Notes: generated by a model from the sequence alone, not told the origin. A stretch of 57,675 nt of DNA from Acidobacteriota bacterium (GCA_016210845.1 JACQTK010000024.1:1-57675); one strand, 5' to 3'. Counted from the first letter of the stretch, positions 9,854-48,215 are shown. A program made the numbers and translations.

Positions 9854-9899
9854 CACTAACGCGCTGTCTCTCACAAGTACTCCAGCGCGTTAGTGTCAC
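9850..9899. repeat. Perfect 17-bp inverted repeat overlapping a stop codon
   Basis: GTGACACTAACGCGCTG (9850-9866) / CAGCGCGTTAGTGTCAC (9883-9899). Confidence 0.8.
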
Positions 9900-9934
9900 T
9901 AGGAGACACAGGATCGTAATCCCAGCGCGGCTTT

Positions 9935-10090
9935 GGACCGCTATGCGGCCCCCAACGAGAATTATGTACTTGTTGCTGCTCCGCATAGCGGTCCTAGGCG
10001 CGCAGAGCGTGCCAAGCAGATACTGGCAACCAGCCAAGGGCTCGGCTCTGCGAACAACGGGATATCAAGGGCGAGCCCTTGGCTGGTTGC
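9935..10090 (+). mobile_element. Composite three-hairpin element, copy 1 (complete, flanked by direct repeats)
   Basis: GGACCGCTATGCGG..CCGCATAGCGGTCC-TAGGCGCGCAGAGCGTGCCAAG-CAGATACTG-GCAACCAGCCAAGGGCTCG..CGAGCCCTTGGCTGGTTGC; GCGGCTTTG at 9927-9935 and 10089-10097. Confidence 0.75.
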
Positions 10091-10130
10091 GGCTTTGCCG
10101 CGCTGGGATCATCACGTCCGGGAACCGTTC

Positions 10131-12800
10131 ATGAAGCTGGTGTTCTTCGCGCGGCACTGGTCGTACCTGCGCAACTTCGAGTCGGCGATCGAGGAGCTGG
10201 CGGCGCGCGGGCACCACGTGCACCTGGCGGCCGACGTCGAAGAGGCGCTCGGTGGACGGGAGATGATCGAGCGGCTGGTGGCGCGCTATCCCGCGCAGCT
10301 GTCGATGGGCAGCGCGCCCGGCCGCGCGCACGGAGCGTGGCCGGAGCTGGCTCAGCGCATCCGGCACTCGCTCGACTACCTGCGGTTTCTCGGGCCGCGC
10401 TACGGGTCCACGACACCGCAGCTGCTCGCGCGGGCGCGCGACCGCGCCCCCCGCTCGATGCTGGCGCTGATGCGGCTGCGGCCCTTTCGGACGGAGAAGG
10501 GACGCGCGGCCGCCGCCAGCGTCTTCCATGCGCTCGAACGCGGTCTGCCCCGCCGTCGGGACCTCGAGCGGTTCATCGCGGACCAGCGGCCCGACGCGGT
10601 GTTGATCACGCCGCTGGTCGACCTCGGCTCCCGCCAGCTGGATCATCTTCGCGCCGCGAAGAGGCTGGGCGTCCGGACGATCCTGCCGGTCGGAAGTTGG
10701 GATCACCTCTCGTGCAAGGCGCTGCTCCGGCTCCTGCCGGACGCGCTGCTCGTGTGGAACGAGGCCCAGAAGGCGGAAGCGGTGGGGATGCACGGCGTGC
10801 CCACGGATCGCGTGGTCGTGACCGGCGCGCAGTGCTACGACCAGTGGTGGGGGCGCCGCCCGACGCGCACCCGCGAGGAGTTCTGCGCGAGAGTCGGACT
10901 CCGGGCCGATCGCCGGTTCGTGCTCTACGTCTGCTCCGCGCTCCTGCGCGGCACGGCGGACGAGCCGATGTTCGTGCTCGACTGGATTCGCGCCATCCGC
11001 GCGAGCGCCGATCCGCGGCTCAAGGACATCGGCATTCTCGTCCGCCCGCATCCGGCGCGGCTCAAGGAGTGGTCCAAGGTCGACTTCTCCGGCCATCGCA
11101 ACGTCGCGTTCTGGGGGGCGCACCCGGTGGACGCCGAGGCGAAGGACGACTACTTCGAGTCGATGTACTACAGCGCCGCGGTGGTCGGGCTGAACACGAG
11201 CGCGTTCGTCGAGGCGTCGGTCGTGGGCAAGCCGGTCCATACCATCCTGCTGCCAGAGATCTCCGCCGCCAATCAGGAGGGGACGCTTCACTTTCACTAC
11301 CTGCTGACGATGAACGGGGGCTTGCTCCGCGCGGCCCGATCGTTCGACGAGCATGTCGCGCTGCTGGCCGACTCGCTGGCCGGCGAGGGCGGCGGCGACG
11401 TCAAGGCCGCCCGGTTTGCCGAGGCGTTCGTCCGTCCGTTTGGCCCCGATGTGCCCGCGACGCCCCGGTTCGTGGACGCCGTGGAACGGGTGGCTGCGGG
11501 GCCGGCTCCCCCGCGCGAGCGGATCGGGTTCGCCGCGCTTCTGCAGGTGGTGCTCTATCCGCTGGCTGCGGTCCTCGCGCTTCACCTGCGCACGCAGCTG
11601 TGGCGGAAGCGCGTCCGCAACAGCGTCCGCAGGCAGTACAGGGCGTTGACGCACTACCTGCTGAACGACCTGGTGCTGATGCTCGTCCGGGGATTGCGCA
11701 AGGCGGCGCGCGCGGCCGAGGCGCCCGCGCAGCCCGGGGCCTTGACGCCGAAGCCCGGTCGTCCGCGCGATCCCGCCAAACGGCAGTGGGGGTGGAAGGT
11801 CGAAGAGGCCAGCGAGGTTCGCGAGCTCGTGACGCTGCTCGGCCGCAGCGAGGGCCCGATCGTCGTGGGACCCTGGCTGTCCGAGATCGGCTTCGAGCTG
11901 CTCTACTGGATCCCGTTCCTCGCCTGGGCGAAGGCGTACGGCAACTTCGACGCCGACCGGCTCGTCGTCATTTCGCGGGGCGGCGTGCAGCCATGGTACG
12001 CGCAGGTGACGCCCCACTATGAGGACGTATTGGGGATCTACGGGCTGGACGAGTTCCGCCGCAAGAACGACGAGCGCATCGCGGCGCATCAGGGACGGCT
12101 CAAGCACACCGCCGTGTCGCCGTTCGACAAGGAGATCGTCGATCGCGTCACGTCGAAGCGGGGGCTGCGCGGCGCCAAGCTGCTGCACCCGGCCGAGATG
12201 TACCGCCTGTTCGACCATTTCTGGTTCCAGCGGACGCCGATCACGCTCGTCGAGTCGTTCACGCGCTTCGCGACGCTGCAGCCTGGTCCGCCGTGGCCGC
12301 TGCGCCACACGCTCCCCGAGCGGTACGTGGCGGCCAAGTTCTACGGCAATACCGCGCTGCCGGACACGCCCGAGAACCGCGCGTTCATCGCCGCATTTCT
12401 CGGCCAGCTGGCGCAGCACGTCGACGTCGTGCTGCTCAATACGGCGGATCGCTTCGACGATCACGAGGACTTTCCGCCGGAGCTGCGGAGCCGCGTGCAT
12501 TCGATCGAGCACCTGATGCGCCCCGAGGACAACCTGGCGGTGCAGACCGAGGTGATCCGCCACGCGACCGCGTTTGTCGGGACCTACGGCGGCTTTTCGT
12601 ACCTGGCGCCGCTGGTCGGCGTCGACACGGTGGCGTTCTACTCGCATCCGAGCCGGTTCCGCTTCGACCACCTCGAGGTGGCCAAGCGCGTCTTTGCCGG
12701 CCTGCGGTGCGGCGCGTTCGTCGAGCTCGACACCCGTGCGCTGGATGTGGTGCGGCTGGCCTTCGGGCGGTCGCTGCCGCAGCTGGTCGAATCCCGCTGA
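10131..12800 (+). CDS. Two-domain protein: SWDxL/RPHP GT-like domain + GPW..LYWIPFL domain
   Basis: MKLVFF..YLRNFE start matches paralogs; GSWDHLSCK, VRPHP; C-half GPWLSEIGFELLYWIPFL and FVGTYGGFSYLAP. Confidence 0.7.
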   Translation: MKLVFFARHWSYLRNFESAIEELAARGHHVHLAADVEEALGGREMIERLVARYPAQLSMGSAPGRAHGAWPELAQRIRHSLDYLRFLGPRYGSTTPQLLARARDRAPRSMLALMRLRPFRTEKGRAAAASVFHALERGLPRRRDLERFIADQRPDAVLITPLVDLGSRQLDHLRAAKRLGVRTILPVGSWDHLSCKALLRLLPDALLVWNEAQKAEAVGMHGVPTDRVVVTGAQCYDQWWGRRPTRTREEFCARVGLRADRRFVLYVCSALLRGTADEPMFVLDWIRAIRASADPRLKDIGILVRPHPARLKEWSKVDFSGHRNVAFWGAHPVDAEAKDDYFESMYYSAAVVGLNTSAFVEASVVGKPVHTILLPEISAANQEGTLHFHYLLTMNGGLLRAARSFDEHVALLADSLAGEGGGDVKAARFAEAFVRPFGPDVPATPRFVDAVERVAAGPAPPRERIGFAALLQVVLYPLAAVLALHLRTQLWRKRVRNSVRRQYRALTHYLLNDLVLMLVRGLRKAARAAEAPAQPGALTPKPGRPRDPAKRQWGWKVEEASEVRELVTLLGRSEGPIVVGPWLSEIGFELLYWIPFLAWAKAYGNFDADRLVVISRGGVQPWYAQVTPHYEDVLGIYGLDEFRRKNDERIAAHQGRLKHTAVSPFDKEIVDRVTSKRGLRGAKLLHPAEMYRLFDHFWFQRTPITLVESFTRFATLQPGPPWPLRHTLPERYVAAKFYGNTALPDTPENRAFIAAFLGQLAQHVDVVLLNTADRFDDHEDFPPELRSRVHSIEHLMRPEDNLAVQTEVIRHATAFVGTYGGFSYLAPLVGVDTVAFYSHPSRFRFDHLEVAKRVFAGLRCGAFVELDTRALDVVRLAFGRSLPQLVESR

Positions 12801-14032
12801 TGGCTGCTCACACCGCGCTGAAGAACCTGCTGCTCAAAGGTGGTCGGCGGCTCGCCGGGCGAACGCGCTGGGCTTCCAAGGTGACCTGGGAAGCGGTGAA
12901 GGACGCCTTCCACGTCGTGCGTGGCTGGATCCTGGGCGCCCGCGATGTGAGCGTGAACGCGGGCAAGGACGTCTTCCGCCGCGCGCGAAGGCCGGTCCGC
13001 CGCGTGCAGCGGCGCCGCCGTCAGCTCGAGGAGCAGTGGCAGCACTATCGGACCGAATGGGCGATCGAGCGTGAGCTCGAGGACGTCGCCTTGCGCGATC
13101 GCACCCTGGTCGTGGGCCCCTGGTTCTCGGAGGTCGGCTTCGAGACGCTCTACTGGATTCCGTTCCTGCAGTGGGCGAAGCTGGCGTTTCGTCTCGATCC
13201 GGAGAGGGTCGTCGCCGTGTCACGCGGTGGCGTGGCGGCGTGGTACCAGGAGATCGCCGCGCGCTATATCGACATCTGGGATGGCATGGAGCCGGCCGAA
13301 TTCGCCGCCCGCAACGCGGCGCGTCCCGTCACGAAGCAGTACGAGCCGTCCGCGCTCGATCGCGACATCCTGGACCATGTCGCCAGGCGTCTGGGAACGC
13401 GGGATTTCGACGTCATCCACCCCAGCCTGATGTACCGGCTCTTCACGCTCTACTGGACCGGTCAGCGCGCCATGGGCTTCGTCGATACGCATACGCGCTT
13501 CACGCGTCAGAGCGTCGTGCCGACGGTCGATCCCGCGCTGCTGCCGCGCGAGTACGTGGCGGTGAAGCTCTACGCGGCGCGGTCGCTTCCGGACACACCC
13601 GATGTCCGCGCGCGGCTCCGGACGCTCGTGACGAGCCTCGCGGAGCGGCTGCCCGTGGTGCTGCTCGACACCGGGCTCGTGCTCCAGGACGACCACGAGG
13701 ACTACGCTTTTGCGTCGCAGGACGTGATCAGCGCGAAGCGCTGGATGACGCCGCAGAACAACCTCGGAGCCCAGACGCAGATCGTGGCTGGCGCGCAGGC
13801 GTTCGTGGGGACCTGCGGCAGCATCGCGTGGCTGGCGCCGCGGCTCGGCGTCGACACCTCGGCGCTGTTCGTCGACCCTTCGTGGCTGCACGCGCACCTG
13901 GCGGTGGCCATGCGGGCGTATCACAAGCTCGAGGCGGGACGTTTCGCCGCCGCCGATCTGCGGGCCCTCGATCCGCTGCAGGTCGGGCACCTGGTCGCCC
14001 GGGCGCACACCAGCCAAGGGCTCCACCCGTGA
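12800..14032 (+). CDS. Putative glycosyltransferase, GPW..LYWIPFL family
   Basis: TGATG overlap; GPWFSEVGFETLYWIPFL, FVGTCGSIAWLAP. Confidence 0.6.
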   Translation: MAAHTALKNLLLKGGRRLAGRTRWASKVTWEAVKDAFHVVRGWILGARDVSVNAGKDVFRRARRPVRRVQRRRRQLEEQWQHYRTEWAIERELEDVALRDRTLVVGPWFSEVGFETLYWIPFLQWAKLAFRLDPERVVAVSRGGVAAWYQEIAARYIDIWDGMEPAEFAARNAARPVTKQYEPSALDRDILDHVARRLGTRDFDVIHPSLMYRLFTLYWTGQRAMGFVDTHTRFTRQSVVPTVDPALLPREYVAVKLYAARSLPDTPDVRARLRTLVTSLAERLPVVLLDTGLVLQDDHEDYAFASQDVISAKRWMTPQNNLGAQTQIVAGAQAFVGTCGSIAWLAPRLGVDTSALFVDPSWLHAHLAVAMRAYHKLEAGRFAAADLRALDPLQVGHLVARAHTSQGLHP

Positions 14033-14230
14033 TATCCACACAGAGCCCTTGGCTGGTTGCCGGTATCTCTTCCACCCCAACGCGCAAAGTCCGCGCGACG
14101 CCACCCCATCGCGCAGTGCGCGATGGGGACCCCGGGTTGGGGGCCCCGGCTTGGCGCGCTCCGCGCGCCTAGGACCGCTATGCGCGTCACAATCTGGACG
14201 AAATTCACGCAACGAGCCGCATAGCGGTCC
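14009..14230 (-). mobile_element. Composite three-hairpin element, copy 2 (inverted, with nested insertion at 14072-14149)
   Basis: ACCAGCCAAGGGCTC..GAGCCCTTGGCTGGTTGCCGGTATCT, insert, CTTGGCGCGCTCCGCGCGCCTAGGACCGCTATGCG..CGCATAGCGGTCC. Confidence 0.75.
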
Positions 14231-14242
14231 GACAGCCCTGTC

Positions 14243-15796
14243 GTGAACGTCCTCTTCATCGCTCGGCACTTCACGTACTTCCGCAACTACGACGCGGCGT
14301 TGCGCGAGCTGGCCGCGCGAGGTCACCGCATTCATCTGGCGGTGGAGATTGACGACAAGATGGGAGGGATCGCTGCCGTGCGGGCGCTCACCGCGGCGTC
14401 CTCGGCGATCACGTCCGGCAAGGTGCCGCTGCGCCGCGCGGATGCCTGGAGCGGCGTGGCGCGCCGGCTGAGGCTCGGCCTCGACTACCTGCGGTACCTC
14501 GACCCCTTTTACGATTCAGCGCCGCTGCGGCGCGTGCGCGCCCGCGACCGCACGCCACGCCTGCTCGCGGCGCTGGCGGATCCGCCGCTGGTCGGCGGCG
14601 AGCGCTGGCGCCGGACGTACGGACGCCTTCTGCACGCCCTCGACGTGGCCGTGCCGCCGCCGGACTCGATCGTCGAATACCTCCGCACGCAGGCGCCCGA
14701 TGTGATGCTGATCACTCCGCTGGTCGATCTCGGATCGCAGCAGCTCGATTACGTGCGGGCCGCGCGGCAGCTCGGCATCCCCTGCGGCCTGGCAGTGTGG
14801 AGCTGGGATCACCTGTCCAGCAAGGCCCTGCTTCGCGTGTACCCCGACCGGGTGTTCGTCTGGAACGCCATCCAGCGCGATGAGGCCGTGCGTGTGCACC
14901 GCGTCCCTGCCGACCGGGTCGTGGTGACCGGCGCGCAGTGTTTCGATCACTGGTTCACGCGGACGCCGTCCCGCACGCGAGCCGACTTCTGCGAGGCGCT
15001 TGGGCTTCCGGCAGGCCGTCCCCTCGTACTCTACGTGTGCACGGCGCTCATCAAGGGCAGCCCCTCCGAAGTGGAGTTCGTCCGCGAATGGTTGACGTGG
15101 CTGCGCGGCAGCGACGATCGGGCGGTGGCGGAGGCAGGCGTCCTCGTGCGACCGCACCCTTCGTCCGCAGGGATGTGGCGGGGTGTCGATCTCTCGGCCT
15201 ATGGGCCTGTGGCCGTGTGGGGCGGCAACCCGGTGGACGAGCCCTCCCGCCGCGACTACTTCGACTCGCTCTATCACAGCGCGGCCGTCGTCGGACTGAA
15301 CACCAGCGCGTTTCTCGAGGCGGCTATCGTCGGCCGCGAGGTGCTCACCGTTCTCGTGCCGCGGTTCCACGACAATCAGATGGGAACGGCGCACTTTCGC
15401 TACCTGCTGCAGGTCGGCGGCGGCATGCTGCGCGTGGCAGACGATGCGGCCCGTCATGTGGAGCAGCTTGGAGCGGCCCTGCGGCGCACGGCGGGCGCGG
15501 AGCACCCGCATCGCGCATTCCTGGAAGCCTTCCTGCGCCCGCAGGGCCTCGATCGTCCCAGCACGCCGCTGTTCGTCGAAGCGGTAGAAGAGCTGCGCGA
15601 GTGCGCCGTCCAGCCGGCGATGCGAGCCGGCCGCTGGAAGCGCGCGGTGCTCGGGCAGGCTGCGAGGGCCATGTCGGCGCTGCTCGGCGATTCGCTCACG
15701 CGATCGCCGCGCGAGCTCGATCCGGCACGGCAGGCGCGGATCGCTGCGGCCGCGAGCGCGAGTGCCGCCGGCGGGCAGGACACGGACCGTGCCTGA
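14243..15796 (+). CDS. Putative GT-B glycosyltransferase, SWDxL/RPHP family, paralog 4
   Basis: GTG start, NVLFIARHFTYFRNY; WSWDHLSSK, VRPHP, NTSAFLEAAIVG. Confidence 0.7.
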   Translation: MNVLFIARHFTYFRNYDAALRELAARGHRIHLAVEIDDKMGGIAAVRALTAASSAITSGKVPLRRADAWSGVARRLRLGLDYLRYLDPFYDSAPLRRVRARDRTPRLLAALADPPLVGGERWRRTYGRLLHALDVAVPPPDSIVEYLRTQAPDVMLITPLVDLGSQQLDYVRAARQLGIPCGLAVWSWDHLSSKALLRVYPDRVFVWNAIQRDEAVRVHRVPADRVVVTGAQCFDHWFTRTPSRTRADFCEALGLPAGRPLVLYVCTALIKGSPSEVEFVREWLTWLRGSDDRAVAEAGVLVRPHPSSAGMWRGVDLSAYGPVAVWGGNPVDEPSRRDYFDSLYHSAAVVGLNTSAFLEAAIVGREVLTVLVPRFHDNQMGTAHFRYLLQVGGGMLRVADDAARHVEQLGAALRRTAGAEHPHRAFLEAFLRPQGLDRPSTPLFVEAVEELRECAVQPAMRAGRWKRAVLGQAARAMSALLGDSLTRSPRELDPARQARIAAAASASAAGGQDTDRA

Positions 15797-15825
15797 ATCA
15801 GAAAACGTGAATCCGAATCACGTCG

Positions 15826-15956
15826 GTGCCTGGTGCTTCGTGCCTGGTGCCTGGTTGGGATTGGTGCCTGGTTCCTGGTGGGTGCCTGGTGCACCGAGCA
15901 CCGCCAAGCACAGGGCACCTCGCACCGCCAGGCACGAAGCACGAAGCACCAAGCAC
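15826..15956. repeat. Inverted degenerate heptamer array (GTGCCTG)n/(CACGAAG-like)n
   Basis: Tandem GTGCYTS units followed by reverse-complement-like units, intergenic. Confidence 0.75.
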
Positions 15957-15961
15957 TGACA

Positions 15962-17026
15962 ATGACTCCAACACCCCCGGTGAACGATGCCCTCGCCGGC
16001 CTCGGTCGGGGGCGCTGCCTCATCATCGGCGAGGTGGCGCTCACGCACGACGGCTCGCTCGGCCTCGCGCATGCCTTCATCGATGCCATCGCCAGTGCGG
16101 GCGCCGACGCCGTCAAGTTCCAGACGCACATCGCCGCGGCCGAGAGCACACCGTCCGAGCCGTTTCGCGTGCCGTTCAGCCGTCAGGATTCCACACGGTA
16201 TGCGTACTGGAAGCGGATGGAGTTCGCCGAGGACCAGTGGCGCGGCCTCGCTGAGCACTGCCGCCAGCGGCAGGTGCTGTTTGTCTCGTCGCCGTTCTCC
16301 CTCGAGGCGGTGGAGCTGTTGCGGCGCGTCGGGCAGCCGCTCTGGAAGATCGCGTCGGGCGAGACGGGCAATACGACGCTGCTCGACCGCATCCTCGACG
16401 ACGGGGCGCCCGTGCTGCTGTCGACGGGCATGAGCCCGCTGGCGGAAATCGACGCGGCTGTCGCGCGCGTGAAAGCACGCGGCGTGCCCGTGGGCGTGTT
16501 TCAGACCACGACGGCCTATCCCTGTCCGGCCGAGAAGGTCGGTCTCAACCTCATTCCGTTCTACCGGGAACGCTACGGCTGCTGGGTGGGGCTGTCCGAC
16601 CATTCGGCGACCATCTACCCCGGTCTGGCGGGCGCGGCCATCGGCATGGACCTGCTCGAGGTGCACGTGGCGCTCTCACGCGAGATGTTCGGTCCGGACG
16701 TCGTTGCCTCCGTGACGACCGCGGAGTTGAAGCAACTGGTCGATGGTGTGCGGTTCATCGCGCGGATGCGGGCATCCCCTCTCGACAAGGACGCGTCGGC
16801 GGCGGAAACGGCATCGCTCCGCCAGATCTTCACGCGCAGCATCGTCGCCAGGGAGGCGCTGCCTGCGGGAACCGTCCTCACGCGGGATCATCTCGTGCTC
16901 AAGAAGCCAGGAACGGGCCTGCCCCCGTCGCGTGTCGAGGAGATCGTCGGCCGTCGACTCGCGCGCGCGGTCTCGGCCGACCAGCTCCTCTCGGCCGACG
17001 ACATCGAAGGGCTCAGCGCGTCGTGA
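15962..17026 (+). CDS. neuB: N-acetylneuraminate synthase family protein (NeuB-like 1) with C-terminal SAF domain
   Basis: HDGSLG, ADAVKFQTH, KIASGE, LSTGMS, GLSDHS, KKPGTG. Confidence 0.9.
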   Translation: MTPTPPVNDALAGLGRGRCLIIGEVALTHDGSLGLAHAFIDAIASAGADAVKFQTHIAAAESTPSEPFRVPFSRQDSTRYAYWKRMEFAEDQWRGLAEHCRQRQVLFVSSPFSLEAVELLRRVGQPLWKIASGETGNTTLLDRILDDGAPVLLSTGMSPLAEIDAAVARVKARGVPVGVFQTTTAYPCPAEKVGLNLIPFYRERYGCWVGLSDHSATIYPGLAGAAIGMDLLEVHVALSREMFGPDVVASVTTAELKQLVDGVRFIARMRASPLDKDASAAETASLRQIFTRSIVAREALPAGTVLTRDHLVLKKPGTGLPPSRVEEIVGRRLARAVSADQLLSADDIEGLSAS

Positions 17027-18039
17027 GGTCGCTGCGGGGGCTGGTGCCGTCTCGGGTTCGGCGGGCTGTCAGCGTCCGGCTCGCGCTGCGCCTCAGCCGC
17101 CGTGTGTCCGACGAGCTGGCGGCGCTGGCCGCAAGCCGACGGCCGATCGTTGTGGGTCCCTGGCTCGGCGAGGTGGGGTACGAGCTGCTGTATTGGATTC
17201 CGTTCCTCGCCTGGTTTTCAGAACGGTTCGAGGTCGATCCGTCCCGTCTGGTCGTGCTGTCGCGGGGGGGAACCGCGTCGTGGTACGCGCCGTTCGCCGG
17301 CCACTACCGGGACGTGCTGGACTACGTGAGCCCCGAGGCGTATCGCGCGCATCATGACGCGCGCGTGCGCGAGGTCGGCGAGCAGAAGCAGACTCGCATC
17401 ACGGCGTTCGACCGGCAGGTGGTCGCGCGGGCCGCCGCCGACGCGGGCCTCGATGGCGCGGGCCTGCTTCATCCCTCGACGATGTACCGGGTATTGCAGC
17501 CGTTCTGGTGGGGGCACCTGGACGAATCGTGGGTCCACCGCCACACGCGCTACCGGCGGCACGCCGCTGCGGACCGTGCCGAGCTTCCTCAGCTTCCTGC
17601 GTCGTACTGCGCGGTGAAGTTCTATTTCAACGACTGCTTTCCGGCGACGGAGGCCAACCGGGCGTTCGTGCGGGGGGTCGTGGCGCGTCTCGCGCGGGAA
17701 GGCCCGGTGGTGTCGCTGTCGGCCGGCGCGGTGCTCGACGATCACGGCGCGTGCTCGGTGGCAGGGCACGGCGTGCTCGACCTCGCCCGCGTGGGTCCGC
17801 CCGCGCGGAATCTGCACGTCCAGAGCGCGATCGTGGCGCACGCCCGTGCGTTCGTCGGCACGTACGGCGGCTTCGCGTATCTCGCGCCGTTCTACGGCGT
17901 GCCCTCCACCGGGTACTTCGACGACGCCTCGGGCTTTGCCCCCTCGCATCTCCGGATGGCCCGATCGGCCTTCGCCTCGATCGGCGCGGGCGATCTGCTC
18001 GACGTTCGTTCGGTCTCCGATATTGACGGTAGTCGATGA
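17023..18039 (+). CDS. Putative glycosyltransferase, GPW..LYWIPFL family
   Basis: GTGA overlap; GPWLGEVGYELLYWIPFL, FVGTYGGFAYLAP. Confidence 0.6.
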   Translation: MRSLRGLVPSRVRRAVSVRLALRLSRRVSDELAALAASRRPIVVGPWLGEVGYELLYWIPFLAWFSERFEVDPSRLVVLSRGGTASWYAPFAGHYRDVLDYVSPEAYRAHHDARVREVGEQKQTRITAFDRQVVARAAADAGLDGAGLLHPSTMYRVLQPFWWGHLDESWVHRHTRYRRHAAADRAELPQLPASYCAVKFYFNDCFPATEANRAFVRGVVARLAREGPVVSLSAGAVLDDHGACSVAGHGVLDLARVGPPARNLHVQSAIVAHARAFVGTYGGFAYLAPFYGVPSTGYFDDASGFAPSHLRMARSAFASIGAGDLLDVRSVSDIDGSR

Positions 18040-18040
18040 C

Positions 18041-19177: not shown

Positions 19178-19638
19178 TCCTCGAGTTCGATGAGCTGAAG
19201 GACTACCGCGGCCGCGTCGCCATGGTGGACGGGGCCTTCGACCCGCTGCACCGCGGTCACATCGAATACTTCCGCGCCGCGTGCGAAGCCGTCGACGTGC
19301 CGCTGCTGTGCAACGTCGCCTCGGACCGGTACGTGCGGACCAAGCATCCGCCGCTGCTGCCCGAGGAGCAGCGCGCGGCGATCGTCGACGCCGTCCGGTA
19401 CATCTCCTACACCCACATCAACCGCGTCGACACCGAGACGATCCTCCGCGAGCTGAGGCCGAAGTACTACGTGAAGGGGAAGGACTGGGACGGCCGGCTG
19501 CCTCCGGAGCAGGTGCGCATCTGCGCCGAGCTCGGCATTGGCCTCGTCTATCTGGACACCGTGTTCGACTCGTCCACGCGCATCCTCGAGCAGTTCCTCT
19601 CGGCGTACAGAGGGAACCAGCCAAGGGGCTGTCCTTGA
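19174..19638 (+). CDS. Cytidylyl/adenylyltransferase (TagD / RfaE domain II-like)
   Basis: GAFDPLHRGH (HxGH), VKGKDW, SSTRI; GTGA overlap. Confidence 0.8.
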   Translation: MILEFDELKDYRGRVAMVDGAFDPLHRGHIEYFRAACEAVDVPLLCNVASDRYVRTKHPPLLPEEQRAAIVDAVRYISYTHINRVDTETILRELRPKYYVKGKDWDGRLPPEQVRICAELGIGLVYLDTVFDSSTRILEQFLSAYRGNQPRGCP

Positions 19639-19702
19639 TACCCCCGGTGGCACCCCCTGGCTGGTTGGCCAGTATTTGGGTGGCGCGCTTCGCGCGCCTG
19701 GG
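19615..19702 (-). mobile_element. Composite element, copy 3 (inverted, partial: hairpin B + core)
   Basis: AACCAGCCAAGGGG..CCCCCTGGCTGGTTGGCCAGTAT..TGGCGCGCTTCGCGCGCCTGGG. Confidence 0.65.
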
Positions 19703-19708
19703 CACACG

Positions 19709-20395
19709 ATGAACATCACGGAGTTCGAGCAGGCGATCCTGAATCAGCAGTCGGTGGAATCCGGGCACTACGACACCGAGTACTGGACCGGCGACTGGCG
19801 GGCGGACGGCAACAACTACAACCTCGAGACCAGGAGGCGGATCGAGGCCAGGAACCCGGCGCTCATCAAGAACGTCTTCCACCCACGGCGTGCGCTGGAT
19901 CTCGGCTGTGGGCCAGGGGCGCTGATGCATCTGCTGTGGGAGCTGGGCGTCGTCGCCGACGGCATCGACTTCGCCGAGTCCAGCGTACGCCTGGCCACTC
20001 CAGAGGTCCGCGACCGTATCACCGTGGGACAGGTCACGGATCCGACGCTCAAGCCGGCCGGTGCCTACGACCTGGTCATCTGCCGCGAGGTGCTGGAGCA
20101 CCTCACGGTGCTCCAGGTGCGGCAGGCGGTGGCCAACATGGTGCGGATGACGTCGAGGTTCATCTACGTGACGACGCGCTTCCACCCGCGGCCGGCGAGC
20201 CTGCTCGACTTCACGACCCAGTTCGACGTGGATCCGACGCACATCACGCTGCTCAACAAGGACCTTCTGCGGCTGATGTTCGTCCTCGACGGCTGCCGAT
20301 CGCGGCCGGACCTGGAGGCCCAAATGGACTGGGGCCACAAGGGGCGTGTGCTGGTGCTGGAAAAGCTTTCAGCCCAGCCAAGGGCTCGCCGTTGA
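19709..20395 (+). CDS. Class I SAM-dependent methyltransferase
   Basis: LDLGCGPG, EVLEHL, DPTHI. Confidence 0.85.
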   Translation: MNITEFEQAILNQQSVESGHYDTEYWTGDWRADGNNYNLETRRRIEARNPALIKNVFHPRRALDLGCGPGALMHLLWELGVVADGIDFAESSVRLATPEVRDRITVGQVTDPTLKPAGAYDLVICREVLEHLTVLQVRQAVANMVRMTSRFIYVTTRFHPRPASLLDFTTQFDVDPTHITLLNKDLLRLMFVLDGCRSRPDLEAQMDWGHKGRVLVLEKLSAQPRARR

Positions 20396-20584
20396 TATCC
20401 GTGCGTGCGGAACCTCGCCCTTGGACCGCTATGCGGCCCCCAACGGGAATCCCGTATCCGCTGCCGCTCCGCATAGCGGTCCTCTAGGCGCGCGGCGCGC
20501 GCCAAGTAGATACTGGCAACCAGCCAAGGGCTCGATGTCATGAACATGAACAAGAACACATCAGGGGCGAGCCCTTGGCTGGTT
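20374..20584 (+). mobile_element. Composite element, copy 4 (complete at 20423-20584, preceded by an interrupted hairpin B)
   Basis: CCAGCCAAGGGCTCG..GCCCTT, then GGACCGCTATGCGG..CCGCATAGCGGTCC, core, CAACCAGCCAAGGGCTCG..CGAGCCCTTGGCTGGTT. Confidence 0.75.
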
Positions 20585-21691: not shown

Positions 21692-21736
21692 GTTCTTCGC
21701 CAATCGAGAGATAGCCAGTCGCCCGGCGACGTGCGA

Positions 21737-21742
21737 TAGAAT
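21737..21742 (+). promoter_or_regulatory. Candidate sigma70 -10 box (TAGAAT), internal promoter
   Basis: Rare AT-rich hexamer in an intergenic gap upstream of a GAGG RBS and ATG 21770. Confidence 0.35.
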
Positions 21743-21769
21743 GGCGGCTTCCCTTATGTCCGAGGCCTG

Positions 21770-22693: not shown

Positions 22694-22695
22694 GA

Positions 22696-22856
22696 GTCGC
22701 GCAGGGCTGGAGCTGTCGCGCAGGGCTGGAGCTGTCGCGCAGGCTAAAGCTGTCGCGCAGGCTAAAGCTGTCGCGCAGGCTAAAGCCTGCGCTCTACAGG
22801 GGGACGGGGACATGGACACCTTCACCTGTAGAGCGGGGGCTTCAGCCCCCGCGATC
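22696..22856. repeat. GTAG-type REP doublet preceded by four 18-19 bp tandem partial copies
   Basis: GTCGCGCAGGGCTGGAGCT x2, GTCGCGCAGGCTAAAGCT x2, ..GCCTGCGCTCTAC; GTAGAGCGGGGGCTTCAGCCCCCGCGATC. Confidence 0.8.
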
Positions 22857-22858
22857 GG

Positions 22859-23950: not shown

Positions 23951-23956
23951 GCGCCG

Positions 23957-24130
23957 GGACCGCTATACGGCTCGTTGCGAGGATTCTGGGCTCGTTGTCA
24001 CGCGTGATTGACTGTCGTATAGCCGTCCCAGGCGCGCGGAGCGCGCCAAGAGAGACTGGAAACCAGCCTGGGGCTCCATCATGAGCGTAGGGCATTCGCG
24101 TGTTCTCGCCAGCGGAGCTGAGGGCTGGTT
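23957..24130 (+). mobile_element. Composite element, copy 5 (degenerate, overlaps SDR start)
   Basis: GGACCGCTATACGG..TCGTATAGCCGTCC-CAGGCGCGCGGAGCGCGCCAAG..AACCAGCCTGGGGCTCC..GGAGCTGAGGGCTGGTT. Confidence 0.7.
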
Positions 24131-24926: not shown

Positions 24927-24933
24927 TGGGCGC

Positions 24934-29241: not shown

Positions 29242-29951
29242 CCGTGCTGTTCTGGGACATCGACGGCACCCTCCTGACCACCGCCAAGGCCGGCGTGTTC
29301 GCGTGGAACGATGCTGTGCGCGAGCTGACGGGACGCGACTTCGAGCTGCTCACCGTGCGTATCGCCGGCCTCACCGACTATCAAATCGCCGTCAGGACCT
29401 TCGAGGCCATGGGCATCGAGCCCGATGACACGCTCGTCCGCTGCCTGGTGGATCGCTACGGCGAGCTGCTGCCTGGGAGCCTCCCGCGGAGGCAGGGGAG
29501 GGTGCTGCCGCACGTTCGCGAGATCCTCGAGCGGCTCCACCTGCGCTCGGGCATCCGCTCGTACCTGCTGACGGGCAACACACGGGCAGGCGCGGCGGCG
29601 AAGCTCACGCACTACGGCCTGATCGGATACTTTCCGGACGGCGCGTTCGCCGAGGACGCAGGAGACCGGTCGGCGATCGCCGAGCGGGCCCTGCAGCTGG
29701 CCAGGCGCGCGGGCCCCGTCTCCGGCGGCGGCGTCTTCGTCATCGGCGACACGCCGCACGACATCGATTGCGCGGCGGCGATCGACGCGCGCACGATCGC
29801 GGTGGCCACGGGGGGCTACTCGATCGAAGAGCTGCGCGTGCACGCGCCGTGGCGCGCATTCGACGAGCTGCCCACGCCGGACGAGTTCGAGCGGTTGATT
29901 GATGGAGGGGCCGACCTTCAGGTCGGCCCGCCAAGGACCCTGTCCGCATGA
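29238..29951 (+). CDS. HAD-family phosphatase
   Basis: WDIDGTLL, LTGN, IGDTPHD; ATGA overlaps at both ends. Confidence 0.88.
   Translation: MTVLFWDIDGTLLTTAKAGVFAWNDAVRELTGRDFELLTVRIAGLTDYQIAVRTFEAMGIEPDDTLVRCLVDRYGELLPGSLPRRQGRVLPHVREILERLHLRSGIRSYLLTGNTRAGAAAKLTHYGLIGYFPDGAFAEDAGDRSAIAERALQLARRAGPVSGGGVFVIGDTPHDIDCAAAIDARTIAVATGGYSIEELRVHAPWRAFDELPTPDEFERLIDGGADLQVGPPRTLSA
29904..29929. repeat. REP-like palindrome inside the 3' end of the HAD gene; related copy at 55834-55859
   Basis: GGAGGGGCCGACCTTCAGGTCGGCCC. Confidence 0.6.
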
Positions 29952-31660: not shown

Positions 31661-31697
31661 CCAGTAGGGCCAGGCCCCTTGTGCCTGCCCACGTGCC

Positions 31698-33494: not shown

Positions 33495-33499
33495 ATCAA

Positions 33500-33619
<120 letters not shown>

Positions 33620-33623
33620 TACC

Positions 33624-34730
33624 GTGCGCATAGGCATCGATGGCCGCGCCTTTGCCTCACGTGCCGCCGGCGTGCGGCGGTATGTCGTGGGGCTCGTTCG
33701 CGGACTGCTCGCGGTCGATCCCACACTCCACATCGTCGCGCTCGGCGGCGTCGATTCCAGCGCGTTGCCGTCCGGGGTCGGCCACGTCGCGGAGCCCGCG
33801 CACCCCCCCTCGAATCTCGGCTGGACGCTGATGGGGCTGCCCCGGGCGGCCGCCCGCGCCTCGGTCGATCTGATTCATGCGCCTGCGTACACCGCGCCCA
33901 TATGGTCCGGCGTGCCCGTCGTCGTTACGATCCATGACGTCAGCTACGAGCGTCATCCCGAGTGGTATCCGTACCGCCGTGACTGGCTGCGGCGGGCATT
34001 CTACCGGCGAAGCGCGCGCGCGGCGGCACACGTGGTGACGGACTCGACGTTTTCGGCGGCGGAAATTGCGGCGGGATACGGTATTGCCTCGGCTCGCATT
34101 GCCGTCGTTCCGCTCGGCGTCGACGCCGGGTTCGCGCCCGCGGATCCCGACGTGCCGTGCGAGCTGCCGGCCGGTGTGGCTGCGCCGTATCTCCTGCACG
34201 TGGGCGACCTGCACGAGCGCCGCAACCTCGGCGTCGTGGTCGAGGCGCTGCTCACGGCGCGGCGGCGTTTCGGGGCGGTCCCTGCGGCGTCATTGGTGCT
34301 GGCCGGCGTGGATCGGGGAGTCGGCGACGGACTCTGCGCGACGGCCGCGCGAGCGGGCGCCCCGGACGCAGTGATTCGGCTCGGGGAGGTGAGCGAGGAG
34401 CGGCTGCGAACGCTCTACCGATGTGCGACGGCGCTGGTGTACCCGTCTCTCTATGAGGGGTTCGGGTTGCCCCTGGTGGAGGCGATGGCCAGTGGCACGC
34501 CCGTCATCGCGTCACGGGCGGCTTCGATCCCAGAGGTCGTGGGAGCAGCGGGCCTGCTGCTCGATCCCACGGACACCTCCGCCTGGACCGACGCGATCGT
34601 CCGGATCATGAACGACGAGCTGCTTCGGGCACGCATGAGGGCCGAAGGCCTGGTACGCGCCGCCGACTTCACGTGGGAGCGGACGGCCCTGTTGACACTC
34701 GACGTGTATCATCGCGTGTTGGAACACTGA
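33624..34730 (+). CDS. GT4 glycosyltransferase
   Basis: RIGIDGR, TIHDV, PSLYEGFGLPLVEAMASG. Confidence 0.9.
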   Translation: MRIGIDGRAFASRAAGVRRYVVGLVRGLLAVDPTLHIVALGGVDSSALPSGVGHVAEPAHPPSNLGWTLMGLPRAAARASVDLIHAPAYTAPIWSGVPVVVTIHDVSYERHPEWYPYRRDWLRRAFYRRSARAAAHVVTDSTFSAAEIAAGYGIASARIAVVPLGVDAGFAPADPDVPCELPAGVAAPYLLHVGDLHERRNLGVVVEALLTARRRFGAVPAASLVLAGVDRGVGDGLCATAARAGAPDAVIRLGEVSEERLRTLYRCATALVYPSLYEGFGLPLVEAMASGTPVIASRAASIPEVVGAAGLLLDPTDTSAWTDAIVRIMNDELLRARMRAEGLVRAADFTWERTALLTLDVYHRVLEH

Positions 34731-34740
34731 ACGCAGACCC

Positions 34741-35802
34741 TTGAATATCGAACCCCGAACGCGAACGTCGAACACGAAGCCGGAACCCCGAACCGGGAAC
34801 ACAGAACCCGACGTCTCGGTGATCATCGTCACGTGGAACGGCCGGCAGTACCTCGAACCCTGTCTGGCGGCGGTGGCGGCACAGGACGGCGTCGAGGCCG
34901 AGACGATCGTGGTGGACAACGGGTCGACCGACGGCACTGCCGAGTTCGTACGCGATCGATTCCCCTGGGTACGCCTCGTCACACTCGAGTCGAACCGCGG
35001 ATTCGCGGGCGGGAACAATGCGGGAGCGCGCGAGGCGCGGGGGCGCCATCTGGCCTTTCTCAACAACGATACCGTGGTGGATCGGGGCTGGCTGCGGGCC
35101 CTTCGCGCTGGAATCGACGTGGAATCGGGGTTCGTGCTCACGACCTCCCGCATCGTCTACATGCACGATCCCGACATCATCGACAGCGCGGGCGACGGAC
35201 TGCTCCGTTGGGGCGGCGCGTTCAAGCGGCATCACGGCTCGGCGGCGCACACGGCGAACGAATCGACCGAGGTCTTCGGCGTGTGCGGGGCCGCCTGCAT
35301 GATGTCCAGGGACGTCTTCGAGGAGCTGGGCGGCTTCGACGAGGACTTCTTCGCCTCGCACGAAGACGTCGACCTCTCTTACCGGGCACGTTTGCGCGGT
35401 TACCGGTGCCGCTACGTGGCGGACGCCGTGGTCAGACATCATGTGAGCGCCACGCTGGGAAAGCTCAGTCCGTTCGCCGTGTATCACGGTCAACGTAATC
35501 TGGAGTGGATGTACCTGAAGAATACGCCGTGGTCGCTCCTCGTCCGAACCCTGCTCGGTCATCTGCTCTATGACGCCGCAGCGGCGGTGTACTTCACGCG
35601 TGTGGGTCTGCTCGGGACGTTCGTCCGAGCGAAATGGGCCGCGCTGGCAGGTGTTCCCGCCATCCTCCGAAAGCGGATGTCGGTCCAGCGATCCAGACGG
35701 CTGAGAGCCGCTGAGATCGAGCGCCATCTTGAAACGCGGTGGCTGTCCATGAAGCTGCGTGAGAAGCGGCTCGACGTCGCACTCAGGGAGCGCACCCCGT
35801 GA
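34741..35802 (+). CDS. GT2 glycosyltransferase; N-terminus derived from GAAC repeats, start uncertain
   Basis: IIVTWN, VDNGSTDG, NRGFAGGNN, FLNND, EDVDL. Confidence 0.88.
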   Translation: MNIEPRTRTSNTKPEPRTGNTEPDVSVIIVTWNGRQYLEPCLAAVAAQDGVEAETIVVDNGSTDGTAEFVRDRFPWVRLVTLESNRGFAGGNNAGAREARGRHLAFLNNDTVVDRGWLRALRAGIDVESGFVLTTSRIVYMHDPDIIDSAGDGLLRWGGAFKRHHGSAAHTANESTEVFGVCGAACMMSRDVFEELGGFDEDFFASHEDVDLSYRARLRGYRCRYVADAVVRHHVSATLGKLSPFAVYHGQRNLEWMYLKNTPWSLLVRTLLGHLLYDAAAAVYFTRVGLLGTFVRAKWAALAGVPAILRKRMSVQRSRRLRAAEIERHLETRWLSMKLREKRLDVALRERTP

Positions 35803-36692
35803 ACGGCCCGGAAGTATCCGCGATCCTCGTCAATTACAACGCGGGCGGGGAGTTGCGCTCCGCCTTGCGCTCTATCGCGGATGAACTGGGCGCCTGCGCC
35901 TGGGAGGCGATTGTCGTCGATAACGCCTCATTCGATGGCAGCGGCACGATCGTTGCCGAATTCGCCCCCCACGCACGCTTGATTCGGAACGAACAGAACC
36001 TGGGTTTCGCGCGCGCTGTCAACCAGGGAATTGGGGCGACCTCAGCGTCTCTGGTGTTGATTATTAATCCCGACTGCCGTCTGGTTCCGGGTGCATTTGT
36101 TTCACTCAGGCGGGAACTGGAGCGGTCCGATTCTTGCGCCGTCGTGGGCCCGCGCATTCTCGATCCGGATGGCTCCGTTCAAGGAAGCGCGAGGGGCGAT
36201 CCCGACATGTTCACGGGACTATTCGGCCGAACTACGCTCCTGCGTCGACTCCTGCCCGATCTGGCGATCTCCAAGCGGAACGTCGTGGCCGACGGCACCA
36301 TTTGCGAGGGACCACCCAGTCTGTCGGTGGATTGGCTATCGGGAGCCTGCATGTTGGCGCGTCGTGACGCGTTGCGGAAGGTCAACGGCTTCGATGAGCG
36401 CTACTTCCTCTACTGGGAAGATGCGGACCTGTGTCGCCGACTCCGTGGCATCGGGTACCACGTCCGATATGTGCCGATCGCCACGGCCATCCATCGGGTC
36501 GGACACTCCAGTCGCAGCGCACGCGCCTCGGCCGTTCTCGCATTTCACGAAAGCGCGTACCTCTATTACGCGACGCATGTCGCTCCAGGGCCCTTCCAGC
36601 CGAAGCGCTCCCTGGCGCGCCTGCTGCTCTCCGCGAGGTGCTGGCTCCATCTGATATTCAACACTCAGGACGGGACGCGTCGTCGGTTGTGA
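35799..36692 (+). CDS. GT2 glycosyltransferase (rhamnosyltransferase-like)
   Basis: ILVNYN, VDNAS, NLGFA, INPD, GFDERYFLYWEDAD. Confidence 0.88.
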   Translation: MNGPEVSAILVNYNAGGELRSALRSIADELGACAWEAIVVDNASFDGSGTIVAEFAPHARLIRNEQNLGFARAVNQGIGATSASLVLIINPDCRLVPGAFVSLRRELERSDSCAVVGPRILDPDGSVQGSARGDPDMFTGLFGRTTLLRRLLPDLAISKRNVVADGTICEGPPSLSVDWLSGACMLARRDALRKVNGFDERYFLYWEDADLCRRLRGIGYHVRYVPIATAIHRVGHSSRSARASAVLAFHESAYLYYATHVAPGPFQPKRSLARLLLSARCWLHLIFNTQDGTRRRL

Positions 36693-36732
36693 TGATCGTG
36701 TCACCTGAACGGCAGCATCGTTCCCACTGGAA

Positions 36733-37836
36733 CTACAGGGTGTCCTCCACCAGCGCCGCCACGTGATTCCCGATCGCCAGGCAGGCCGTCAGCCCTGGCG
36801 ACTCGATGCCCGCTGCCTGCACCAGGCGCGGGCATTTCGTGTCTCTGGCGATCAGAAAATCCGCGAACGGTTCCTCAGGCGGGTGGAGCTTCGGGCGGAT
36901 GCCGCTCCCGCCCGGCCGCAGATCCTCGAGCCGCAGCTCTGGCAGCAGCTCGCGCGCCGGTTCGAGAAACCGCTCGATCGGGATCCGGTTCTCCTCATAG
37001 TCGTCTTTGCGAGCCTGGTAGCGGACGGTGGGGCCGAGCGTGACGACGCCATGCGTCGTCTTCGTGAGGTGTACGCCGAGTGAGTGCCCGGACGCGTGAG
37101 GGAGAGGATACACGGGCCCGTTGACGAGCCCTCGCTTCGATGGCACGAGCTCGGCGTACTCGCCACGACAGGGATAGATCCGGAAGGGCGCGCCGCCGAG
37201 CGCGGCTGACGCCTCGTCGGCATGGAGTCCGGCGGCGTTCACGACCGTCCGTGCCAGGATCGTTTCGGCCGGTGTTCGCAGCTCGAGCCCGTCCGGACGC
37301 TGTGTCGCACCCACCAGCGGCGTCCCCGTCAGCACGAACGCCTCGTGGCCCGCACACAGGCGAGCGAGCGTGCGCACCAGCGCCTCGGCTTCGATGACGC
37401 CCGTGTTCGGAGAGAAGAGTGCAGCCGTGCCGCGCACGTGCGGCTCGCGCGCGCGGATGAATGCGCGATCGACCAGCTGAAGTCCCTCGACGCCGTTGGC
37501 CTCGCCCCGCGCCCGCAGCCCTTCGAGGGCCTCGACCTCCCGATCGTCCTGCGCCACGATCAGCTTGCCCGTCCGCACGTGCGCGATGCCGTGCGTCGCG
37601 CAGAAGTCATAGAGCAGCCGCGCCCCCTCGACGCAGTGTCGTGCCTTGAGCGTGCCTCCGGGGTAGTACAGGCCGGCATGAATCACCTGGCTGTTGTGCG
37701 TGCTCGTGCCCATCCCGGCGCGCGGCTCGCGCTCGAGCACGCAGACGCTGTGTCCGCGTCGCGCGATCGCCAGCGCGGAGGCGAGGCCCACCACGCCCGC
37801 CCCGATGACGACGGTGTCGATGCGAGAAGTGTCCAT
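36733..37836 (-). CDS. FAD-dependent oxidoreductase (L-2-hydroxyglutarate oxidase-like)
   Basis: [39 protein letters not shown]. Confidence 0.85.
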
Positions 37837-37837
37837 A

Positions 37838-38003
37838 GGACCGCTATACGGCTCCTAATTGAGGATCTTGTATCGGTTGCGCGCCTGAGGTGTGAGCCGT
37901 ATAGCAGTCCTAGGCGCGCGGAGCGCGCCAAGCAGATACTGCCAACCAGCCAAGGGCTCGTCTCGGAGTTACTGGGATGCCAAGAGCGAGCCCTTGGCTG
38001 GTT
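37838..38003 (+). mobile_element. Composite element, copy 6 (complete, between divergent genes)
   Basis: GGACCGCTATACGGCTC..GAGCCGTATAGCAGTCC-TAGGCGCGCGGAGCGCGCCAAG-CAGATACTGCC-AACCAGCCAAGGGCTCG..CGAGCCCTTGGCTGGTT. Confidence 0.75.
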
Positions 38004-38028
38004 TTCGTGACATGGTACGATACGACGT

Positions 38029-41207: not shown

Positions 41208-41225
41208 TAGCGCAGCGCCGCGCGG

Positions 41226-48157: not shown

Positions 48158-48215
48158 TAGAGCGGGGGCTTCAGCCCCCGCGCAGCCCCCGCGCGGGCTG
48201 AAGCCCGCGCGCTAC
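48157..48215. repeat. GTAG-type REP doublet with GTAG ends outward (REPIN-like)
   Basis: GTAGAGCGGGGGCTTCAGCCCCCGCG..CGCGGGCTGAAGCCCGCGCGCTAC. Confidence 0.75.

Follow-up and report, generated by a model that had tools for sequence, protein, structure and literature searches.

A high-copy family of three-hairpin repeats, very probably mobile and non-autonomous, in a genome of the Acidobacteriota

Introduction

Much is known of dispersed intergenic repeats in proteobacteria and firmicutes, but they have hardly been studied in the Acidobacteriota, an abundant, mostly uncultured phylum of soil and groundwater. The 57,675-nt stretch of an Acidobacteriota bacterium examined here (GCA_016210845.1, JACQTK010000024.1:1-57675; the window, below), one of the 305 contigs of a 4.18-Mb draft genome, raises the question of what such a repeat is and how it spreads. 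It holds six copies of a composite element made of a long hairpin (A), a short GC core hairpin, a linker and a second long hairpin (B). An original prediction had read this element either as a non-autonomous element moved through folded single-stranded DNA (ssDNA) by an HUH/RAYT-like enzyme, or as a structured RNA module punctuating a long operon. Here we describe the family to which the six copies belong, the evidence that it is mobile, and the enzymes that may move it.

Results

Size and distribution of the family

The element is not a local feature of the operon but a genome-wide family. The 17-mer of the core occurs 115 times in the genome as an exact word, the arm of hairpin A 244 times (two per hairpin) and the arm of hairpin B 87 times, and blastn finds 127 matches that cover at least 80% of copy 1. 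An nhmmer profile made from 110 full copies gave 437 matches, which reduce to 284 non-overlapping loci with a total of 34,739 nt, or 0.83% of the assembly. The complete A-core-B arrangement is present at 163 loci, followed by core-B (46), A only (24), A-core (15), A-core with a partial B (13), B only (13) and other arrangements (10). Contig ends are touched by 33 of the 284 loci, so that the true copy number is probably higher. Among 145 full copies the median nearest-neighbour identity is 0.93; nine have a partner at 0.98 or above and one pair is identical (1.00), while the mean pairwise identity within the genome is 0.795.

Outside this genome the distribution is patchy. A scan of species genomes with an exact pattern returned 19 loci. 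Of these, 17 belong to five metagenome-assembled genomes that bear the label Acidobacteria, Acidobacteriota or Vicinamibacterales. The remaining two, both full-length, lie in contigs of a bin labelled Bifidobacteriaceae (L025, L030), and probably represent mis-binned acidobacterial DNA rather than transfer between phyla. Matches were found in 8 of 31 close relatives and in 11 of 151 genomes sampled evenly from the same order (probably Vicinamibacterales, Acidobacteriota), the latter falling into 10 of 80 genera and 7 of 19 families. Full-length copies from other families are 72-82% identical to copy 1, and module content varies by genome, one relative having A and core only and another mostly core and B. 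Plasmid and phage collections gave no blastn match, and no copy was present in 794 kb of metagenome loci around the DegT gene, where the best match was 70% identical and no close strain was represented.

Anatomy and covariation

The consensus of 148 nt comprises, in fixed order, hairpin A (GGACCGCTATRCGG ... CCGYATAGCGGTCC), the short GC core hairpin (GGCGCGCGGAGCGCGCC), the linker AAGCAGATACTG (read as AAGNAGATACTG in the window copies) and hairpin B (AACCAGCCAAGGGCTC ... GAGCCCTTGGCTGGTT). The three palindromes, of about 60, 17 and 55 nt, are unrelated to one another. This shared architecture, as originally described, was apparent in every copy that we read, and copy 1 folds into three hairpins at -56.4 kcal/mol (z = -9.7), a stability that none of 200 shuffled sequences reached. 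All six copies were found at the places first given for them (Table 1): a 22-nt core pattern has five matches in the window when up to 3 mismatches are allowed, whereas 100 shuffles gave none, and copy 3, whose core is more diverged, was detected by nhmmer.

The description of the loops as divergent needs correction. Conservation within the genome and across genera extends to the inner hairpin of A, AACGAG-AATTTTGTA-CTCGTT, to the GGGATATCAAGGGC that forms the 3' half of the B loop, and to the linker; the loops are thus mostly conserved, and the differences among the window copies reflect subfamilies and insertions.

The compensatory change noticed in hairpin A is borne out by the 145 full-length genomic copies, from which all pair counts here are taken: pair 11-51 is G-C in 109, A-T in 25 and G-T in 4. 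Elsewhere in the A stem, pair 16-46 is C-G in 70 and T-A in 18 copies, pair 3-59 is A-T in 132 and C-G in 7, and pair 7-55 is C-G in 133 and T-A in 8. The core stem alternates at pair 65-79 (G-C 110, C-G 26), and the B stem at pair 104-137 (A-T 115, C-G 17). Changes on both sides are seen at 8 of the 29 consensus pairs in a set of 30 sequences drawn from several genera. The variants of the modules are linked to each other (A 11-51 with core 65-79, p = 0.004; core with B 104-137, p = 0.04), indicating that the composite propagates as one unit, with subfamilies. Modules are also found singly; five of the 24 A-only loci retain the right terminus of B, as would be expected if both termini matter.

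Ends and target sites

The ends of the element are not inverted repeats of each other. The left end, (TT)GGACCGCTATGC, does not match the right end when the latter is reverse-complemented (AACCAGCCAAGG), each hairpin being palindromic within itself only. A search of 108 copies for a target duplication of variable kind found none at any offset or length, the best reaching 14% matching against 7% in shuffles. The element is therefore not a classical MITE (a miniature transposable element bounded by inverted repeats), as had been predicted.

The junctions are nevertheless sharp. In 110 copies anchored on ACCGC and GGCT, the four positions before ACCGC are T73/C25, T86, G98 and G103 (YTGG), and the four after GGCT are G94, G94, T90 and T67/C25 (GGTY), with no conservation farther out than YTGG/ACC...GGCT/GGTY (slashes mark the junctions). 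Conserved junctions of this kind, together with the lack of inverted repeats and of duplication, suggest that the mover is not one of the usual DDE or RAYT enzymes.

Three copies lie in the hairpin loop of another repeat family, for which 12 unoccupied paralogues in two host-hairpin subfamilies are available for comparison. The unoccupied sites read GCGT-TTGGTT-GCGGC (or GTGGTT) and the occupied ones GCGT-TTGG/ACC...GGCT/GGTT-GCGGC, so that the net insertion equals the element plus an overlap of at most 3 bases. This overlap is compatible with three models: a cut after YTG with no duplication, a cut after YTGG, and an exchange over a shared GG. A flanking stem of at least 9 bp surrounds 7 of 142 copies, compared with 0.7 expected, suggesting that hairpin loops are a favoured but minor target.

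Differences between strains and genera

One related strain has a 4.3-kb contig that is about 95-97% identical to the window and in which 6 letters stand in place of the 226 nt (14012-14237) that hold copy 2. The same contig (X5 record 25) has 103 extra letters at 12794-12799; this addition falls between two paralogous large genes and may be a further insertion that differs between strains. In two related strains, contigs end their match to the window at 19701, 20580 and 23950, a few bases from the edges of copies 3, 4 and 5, and continue beyond these break points with 69-492 letters of their own. The comparison is one of assembled contigs rather than reads, with the sequence of the empty site left unread, which tempers what it can say for mobility.

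In this genome gcvH has an element on either side. At the loci of 29 relatives no element adjoins the gene, and a single weak partial B match was seen about 1.3 kb off in one locus. Seven of the relatives' loci were read; in these the gene's stop either overlaps the likely start of the following gene or is no more than about 40 nt away from it. The genes that flank the copies of five relatives have almost no homologues in this genome, which makes them uninformative here. One genomic copy is nested within the hairpin A loop of another. Head-to-tail or abutting copies, which might keep a circle junction, were not found.

Insertions thus differ between strains and between genera. Empty orthologous sites and copies outside the locus, by which mobility was to be judged, are both represented (copy 2 missing in a related strain, no element beside gcvH in the relatives, 284 loci in the genome), and the family is very probably a mobile, non-autonomous repeat.

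Copies in the window and their neighbours

The individual copies and the repeats associated with them are listed in Table 1. Module D, nested in copy 2, occurs at 10 loci genome-wide, 6 of which are within or beside members of the family; in other genomic copies, too, it is found between core and linker. Copy 1 sits within a hairpin loop of another mosaic repeat, 'H', the third repeat family that we noted in this genome. H consists of the hairpin GTGACACTAACGCGC..., then TAGCAGATACAGG, then the hairpin CCCAGCGCGGC-GTTTGGTTGC-GGC..., and is present at about 10 further loci (for example C5:29580-29720 and C300:21430-21560). Its second loop is a recurrent insertion site of the three-hairpin element, and the two have a CAGATAC linker motif in common.

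Table 1. Members of the three-hairpin family in the window and the repeats associated with them
Feature	Coordinates	Strand	Description
H repeat, left part	9850..9932	+	Hairpin GTGACACTAACGCGC...GCGCGTTAGTGTCAC, CAGATAC-like linker and left arm of hairpin CCCAGCGCGGC; host of copy 1
Copy 1	9935..10090	+	Full length; hairpin A ~9935-9994, core 9997-10013, linker ~10014-10025, hairpin B 10026-10090; nhmmer 9935-10089 (+), model positions 1-147, E 8e-42
H hairpin, right arm	10091..10110	+	GCCGCGCTGGGAT; hairpin split by copy 1
Copy 2	14009..14230	-	Full length, with nested 73-nt insert (14071-14143) between core and linker; split by nhmmer into 14009-14070 and 14144-14230 (-)
Module D	14071..14143	-	Extra palindrome CCGGGGCCCCCAAC...GTTGGGGTGGA nested in copy 2; carries a further hairpin insert
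Copy 3	19615..19711	-	Core, linker and hairpin B only (model positions 51-146), without hairpin A
Hairpin-B-like fragment	20370..20405	-	One arm and loop, inverted, just 5' of copy 4; found by reading; weak nhmmer matches nearby at 20374-20482 (-), E 2e-7, and 20366-20399, E 0.9
Copy 4	20423..20584	+	Full length; nhmmer
Copy 5	23957..24130	+	A, core and linker intact, hairpin B degenerate and enlarged; nhmmer 23957-24079 (+), model positions 1-114; degenerate right arm of B to ~24130
Copy 6	37838..38004	+	Full length; in the spacer between divergent genes

The window carries a sugar-nucleotide/surface-polysaccharide cluster that encodes NeuB, a DegT aminotransferase, a cytidylyltransferase, a methyltransferase, a short-chain dehydrogenase and an RmlD-like protein, and copies of the element fill the spacers between these genes. 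Copy 3 adjoins the methyltransferase gene downstream of it, at that gene's ATG (19709). The B loop of copy 4 holds two in-frame ATGs of the DegT gene (20540 and 20546), the only ones ahead of the conserved part of DegT; homologues of DegT align from residue 4-28, mostly from 12-14, which corresponds to nucleotide 20579 and is still within copy 4. The short-chain dehydrogenase gene probably starts at ATG 24081, within copy 5. A single nucleotide separates copy 6 from the start codon of an FAD oxidoreductase gene (37834-37836, minus strand), and the RmlD-like gene on the other side of the copy starts at 38029.

Interleaved with the sugar-pathway genes are at least four paralogous large genes of 500-890 amino acids (about 475-2733, 7811-9853, 10131-12800 and 14243-15796), which are 60-80% identical over stretches of 125-290 nt; the regions 12293-14032 and 17023-18039 have shorter repeats in common with them. 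Four large genes of this group (7976-9850, 10131-12797, 12293-14029 and 14243-15793) had no Pfam match at E up to 1e-5.

Discussion

An HUH nuclease as the favoured mover

On balance, we favour a high-copy, non-autonomous mobile family of about 148 nt that is moved by an enzyme encoded elsewhere, most likely an HUH nuclease. Such an enzyme would recognise two different hairpin-bearing ends and cut at short conserved motifs, and would most likely be of the rolling-circle or ssDNA-circle type. As a side effect, copies fill whole intergenic spacers and sometimes give the next gene its 5' leader or start codon. In the original proposal, the dispersed non-autonomous element stands and the link to a RAYT does not; the folded-ssDNA (HUH) mechanism is the leading explanation, though an unproven one.

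The outer stems bear on the question of a single-stranded stage, on which the tests disagree (see below). As written, they contain G:T more often than A:C (35:7 in hairpin A, 27:9 in hairpin B; together 62:16, binomial p ~1e-7), although these cells are not independent, many having been inherited together; across genera a hand count gave 16 versus 11. A strand-specific intermediate is therefore possible.

The closest likeness is to the IS91 family, whose transposases are Y2 HUH enzymes. According to a 2026 paper (PMC13181058), IS91-family elements have two different ends without inverted repeats and make no duplication; one subterminal palindrome lies at terIS and one or two at oriIS; the targets adjoining oriIS are CTTG, GTTC or GTCC; and 89 and 82 bp of the ends are enough for transposition, which has ssDNA circles as intermediates. 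Our element likewise has neither inverted repeats nor duplication, bears a single palindrome at one of its ends and a pair at the other within about 65 + 80 nt, and has a GTTC/GTCC-like tetranucleotide, similar rather than identical, in the flank of its two-palindrome end. With the cut position assumed to follow ...GGCTG, this tetranucleotide is GTTC in 29, GTTG in 21, GTTT in 7 and GTCC in 6 of the 110 copies, with T at its second position in 90; at the other end, CTTG precedes GACCGC in 23 of the 110.

Genomes with the element also tend to have Y2_Tnp genes. Among the 31 relatives, nine have such a gene, namely five of the eight element-positive and four of the 23 element-negative genomes (p = 0.03). 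In the order sample the gene is present in 46 of 151 genomes, comprising 8 of 11 element-positive and 38 of 140 element-negative ones (odds ratio 7.2, Fisher p = 0.003).

A number of observations weigh against an ssDNA mechanism in general or an IS91-like enzyme in particular. The Y2 co-occurrence tests ignore relatedness, and their two samples share three genomes; Y2 genes are common anyway (46 of 151), and three element-positive genomes (G047, G059 and G119) have none. No autonomous copy came to light: element-like ends were found at none of 18 Y2 loci (6 + 12) in element-positive genomes, scanned for about 1.5-2.5 kb on each side unless cut by a contig end, so that the expected IS91 gene flanked by element motifs did not appear and the likeness to IS91 lacks its gene. 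The best Y2 match of this genome is a C-terminal remnant, and the ends of a full-length IS91-type gene in one relative (G013), compared by eye, bear no clear likeness to those of the element. Canonical IS91 targeting accounts for the conserved GTTY on the right but not for the YTG of the left flank, which is conserved as strongly. In a subfamily of eight copies the left junction carries AG in the place of GG, and the 3' arm of A has changed to match; TTAG stands on both sides in four of the eight, a pattern that fits no simple junction model. The single-strand tests disagree among themselves, the G:T excess standing against equal folding energies: over 145 copies the top strand is the more stable in 78 and the bottom strand in 64-66 (p = 0.13-0.16). 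Finally, the orientation of copies relative to local GC skew is only weakly biased (142:102, on short contigs), and on the 5.4-Mb contig of a relative the top strand is leading in 5 copies and lagging in 11, relative to dnaA (hand count).

With these points in mind, an IS91-like Y2 HUH enzyme is a tentative candidate for the mover, and we think it somewhat doubtful. A natural, non-autonomous derivative of IS91 with so many copies and of such a size is not known to us, within a literature search that was not exhaustive. One may speculate, with slightly less confidence still, that the family is the first natural high-copy 'mini' rolling-circle (IS91/Y2 HUH) element, or else the client of a still unrecognised domesticated HUH-type enzyme. 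As a mini-IS91, it would consist of a one-hairpin, ter-like end fused to a two-hairpin, ori-like end, would be copied through a single-stranded circle and inserted without a footprint at YTG^GTY, and would have persisted with its enzyme across the whole acidobacterial order, as REPINs have with RAYTs.

Insertion sequences and other candidates near the element

IS110-family genes are present in all five element-rich genomes. Three different insertion sequences (IS) of this family sit in or against copies in this genome; an IS110 gene flanked by element motifs, for which the original prediction had proposed to look, was not seen. One (C147:1408-3124) lies inside a copy, at the CTAG between hairpin A and the core; another (C189:1-2302) precedes a core-B copy that lacks hairpin A; and the third (C290:150 to about 1700) adjoins a copy that is truncated at the right-end GGCT^GGTT. 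A DDE_Tnp_1 IS at C130:985-2985, with inverted repeats CCCATGTTTGCGGT and a CTAG duplication, occupies the same CTAG in yet another copy. IS110-family elements require a long specific target. Mobilisation of the element by IS110 was accordingly rejected, only about 6 bases being conserved around its insertions and the IS110s lying in or against the element rather than at its ends. The element looks instead like a preferred landing site of IS110-type elements, as REPs are elsewhere; REPs are described as targets for IS insertion in PMC3733652.

Genes enclosed by pairs of elements were also considered. Of 18 such proteins searched in Pfam, 15 had a match, all of them ordinary housekeeping or envelope proteins and none a recombinase. 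Two of the other three are paralogous secreted proteins of about 300 amino acids (C291:1113-2024, L186; C161:1867-2754, L188), 45% identical and without a Pfam or NCBIfam match; each of the two genes is enclosed by two element copies in inverted orientation. Integron attC sites, group II introns and retroelements were dropped on anatomy alone. A repeat of at least 3.5 kb in the relative G010, at 99% identity in C3:58294-61900, C16, C30:3266500-3270000 and at least 14 more places, occurs in many small contigs as well as in the main contig and has a 249-amino-acid open frame with a weak serine-recombinase match; it is unrelated to the element, having no sequence similarity to it, and was dropped. 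The genome itself is a fragmented draft, from whose assembly multi-copy insertion sequences are likely to be missing.

A possible strand exchange by a serine recombinase

In an IS607-type mechanism, a serine recombinase would excise a circle and exchange strands over a GG common to the termini and the target. The junctions fit this equally well. GG is present at both (98-103 and 94 of 110 copies) and a single GG at the 12 unoccupied paralogous sites, and IS607, as described in PMC6188088, inserts at GG, has GG termini, lacks terminal inverted repeats and makes no duplication. The genes and the ends argue otherwise. None of the five element-rich genomes has a TnpB, nor an IS607 TnpA that reaches the NF033518 cut-off (best 48 bits versus 110); the proteins matched in this search are ordinary resolvase-type proteins with an N-terminal catalytic domain, and none adjoins an element. 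The ends are large hairpins rather than short arrays of direct repeats, subterminal direct repeats of the IS607 kind not having been seen, though without a systematic search. The combination of AG on the left and GG on the right in the eight-copy subfamily would be disallowed by a strict 2-bp crossover. We consider this mechanism improbable.

A sequence possibly maintained by the host

The repeat could also be a DNA or RNA element that serves the host, for instance as a platform bound by a nucleoid or regulatory protein or as a promoter/leader cassette, with recombination spreading it and selection maintaining it. Conservation across families of the order is 72-85% and extends over the entire sequence, its loops as well, and gene context is not random: copies lie between tandem genes in 89, between divergent genes in 54 and between convergent genes in 13 of 156 cases, whereas the background spacers number 657, 276 and 239 (n = 1172; chi-square p = 7e-5). 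The resulting enrichment between divergent genes and depletion between convergent ones, together with the leaders and start codons that copies supply, would suit such a function, although the gene calls behind these counts come from a crude caller based on GC3, with a coverage of 71% of the genome. Of 222 copy ends, 133 face the start of a gene, compared with 985 of 1882 in the background. The copies have no orientation preference toward genes (49:40 in tandem contexts; A end against B end, p = 0.13), and two copies that were scanned contain no sigma-70-like promoter. Sites are non-orthologous between genera and variable between strains, and the sharp constant ends, the nested copy and the identical copies point to events of copying and insertion. 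A host-used element is, in our view, about as improbable as exchange by a serine recombinase.

REP-type repeats and Y1 enzymes

The hairpins might form a mosaic of REP units that is cut and copied by a domesticated Y1 HUH transposase (RAYT/TIRYT). Like REPs, BIMEs and REPINs, the family is high-copy and extragenic, consists of palindromes arranged in mosaics with conserved linkers, persists within its lineage and is a target of IS insertion. The genome does have one Y1_Tnp gene, and Acidobacteria are reported to have Y1 genes with long double-palindromic flanks (PMC3733652). This sole gene (C212:14229-14540), however, is flanked by a different REP family that has a GTAG tag (TCCACCTGTAGAGCG-hairpin). 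The element was absent at E up to 1 from all 30 Y1 loci inspected, the genome's own and 29 from 20 relatives, and the anticipated RAYT/TnpA gene flanked by element motifs was thus not found. Nor do the two track each other, as Y1 genes are present in 21 and the element in 8 of the 31 genomes, and the element-rich relative G018 (85% complete) has no Y1 match. The element consensus lacks a GTAG or CGTC tag, its hairpins are two to three times longer than REPs, and its three palindromes are unrelated, unlike the single REP in alternating orientation that makes up a BIME. A REP/BIME origin is accordingly more improbable than either of the two preceding explanations.

The second family, a classical REP, deserves mention in its own right. 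Its unit is a hairpin, GCGGCGGCTGAAGCCGCCGC, with TCTACAGG after it (read as GTAG on the opposite strand); the units are often paired in inverted orientation, and the family occurs in the window at 2718-2820, 22705-22856, 41225-41348, 48163-48220 and 54172-54246, with tandem repeats of 18-19 nt accompanying the copy at 22705-22786. Inverted copies flank the Y1 (RAYT-like) gene (C212:12729-16040, L011), which is a typical REP-RAYT arrangement.

A structured RNA module as an unlikely alternative

The second proposal of the original prediction, a cis-acting structured RNA module in the sugar-operon transcripts with a role in processing, stability or translational coupling, draws on the stable hairpins, the compensatory changes and the several copies that overlap start codons in the operon, but is very unlikely given that copies occur in both orientations within the operon (copies 2 and 3 are reversed) and genome-wide (49 same and 40 opposite in tandem contexts), that the 284 loci lie beside unrelated housekeeping genes, that sites vary between strains and are non-orthologous between genera, that the strand asymmetry of folding is not significant, and that Rfam gives only noise.

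Relation to described repeats

The element did not match a named family. At the gathering threshold Rfam 15 has no match in the window, with only sub-threshold hairpin noise around copy 6, and our literature search found no description of repeats in this order or of such an element. Some general resemblances may be drawn. PATEs, which derive from IS200/IS605, make no duplication and have ends that differ from each other, with hairpins in a subterminal position and, 5' of the left end, a tetranucleotide that is conserved. Our element differs from them in that its hairpins reach the very termini, no matching Y1 gene accompanies it, and its replication bias is not strong. RIME in rhizobia, BOX in pneumococcus, Correia in Neisseria and bcr1 in Bacillus cereus are palindromic modules of 100-200 nt, intergenic and near gene starts, in tens to hundreds of copies, and their movers are mostly unknown or borrowed. 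Those modular repeats whose ends are known have inverted-repeat termini and usually a TA or other short duplication, and the three-hairpin element has neither. In kind, the family is one more dispersed intergenic palindromic repeat, which by their defining features is neither a MITE nor a REP/RAYT system; the structure of its ends agrees with both IS91-like and IS607-like elements, a partner gene having been found for neither.

Implications

At about 1% of the genome, the family breaks short-read assemblies, as the 33 of 284 copies at contig ends illustrate. Its copies occupy whole spacers and sometimes give a leader or a start codon to housekeeping and sugar-pathway genes. A model of the family can be used for repeat masking, for following strain-level insertion differences in metagenomes and for better start-codon calls in these bacteria. 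If the mover should prove to be IS91-like, the element would offer a natural, compact substrate for studies of rolling-circle transposition.

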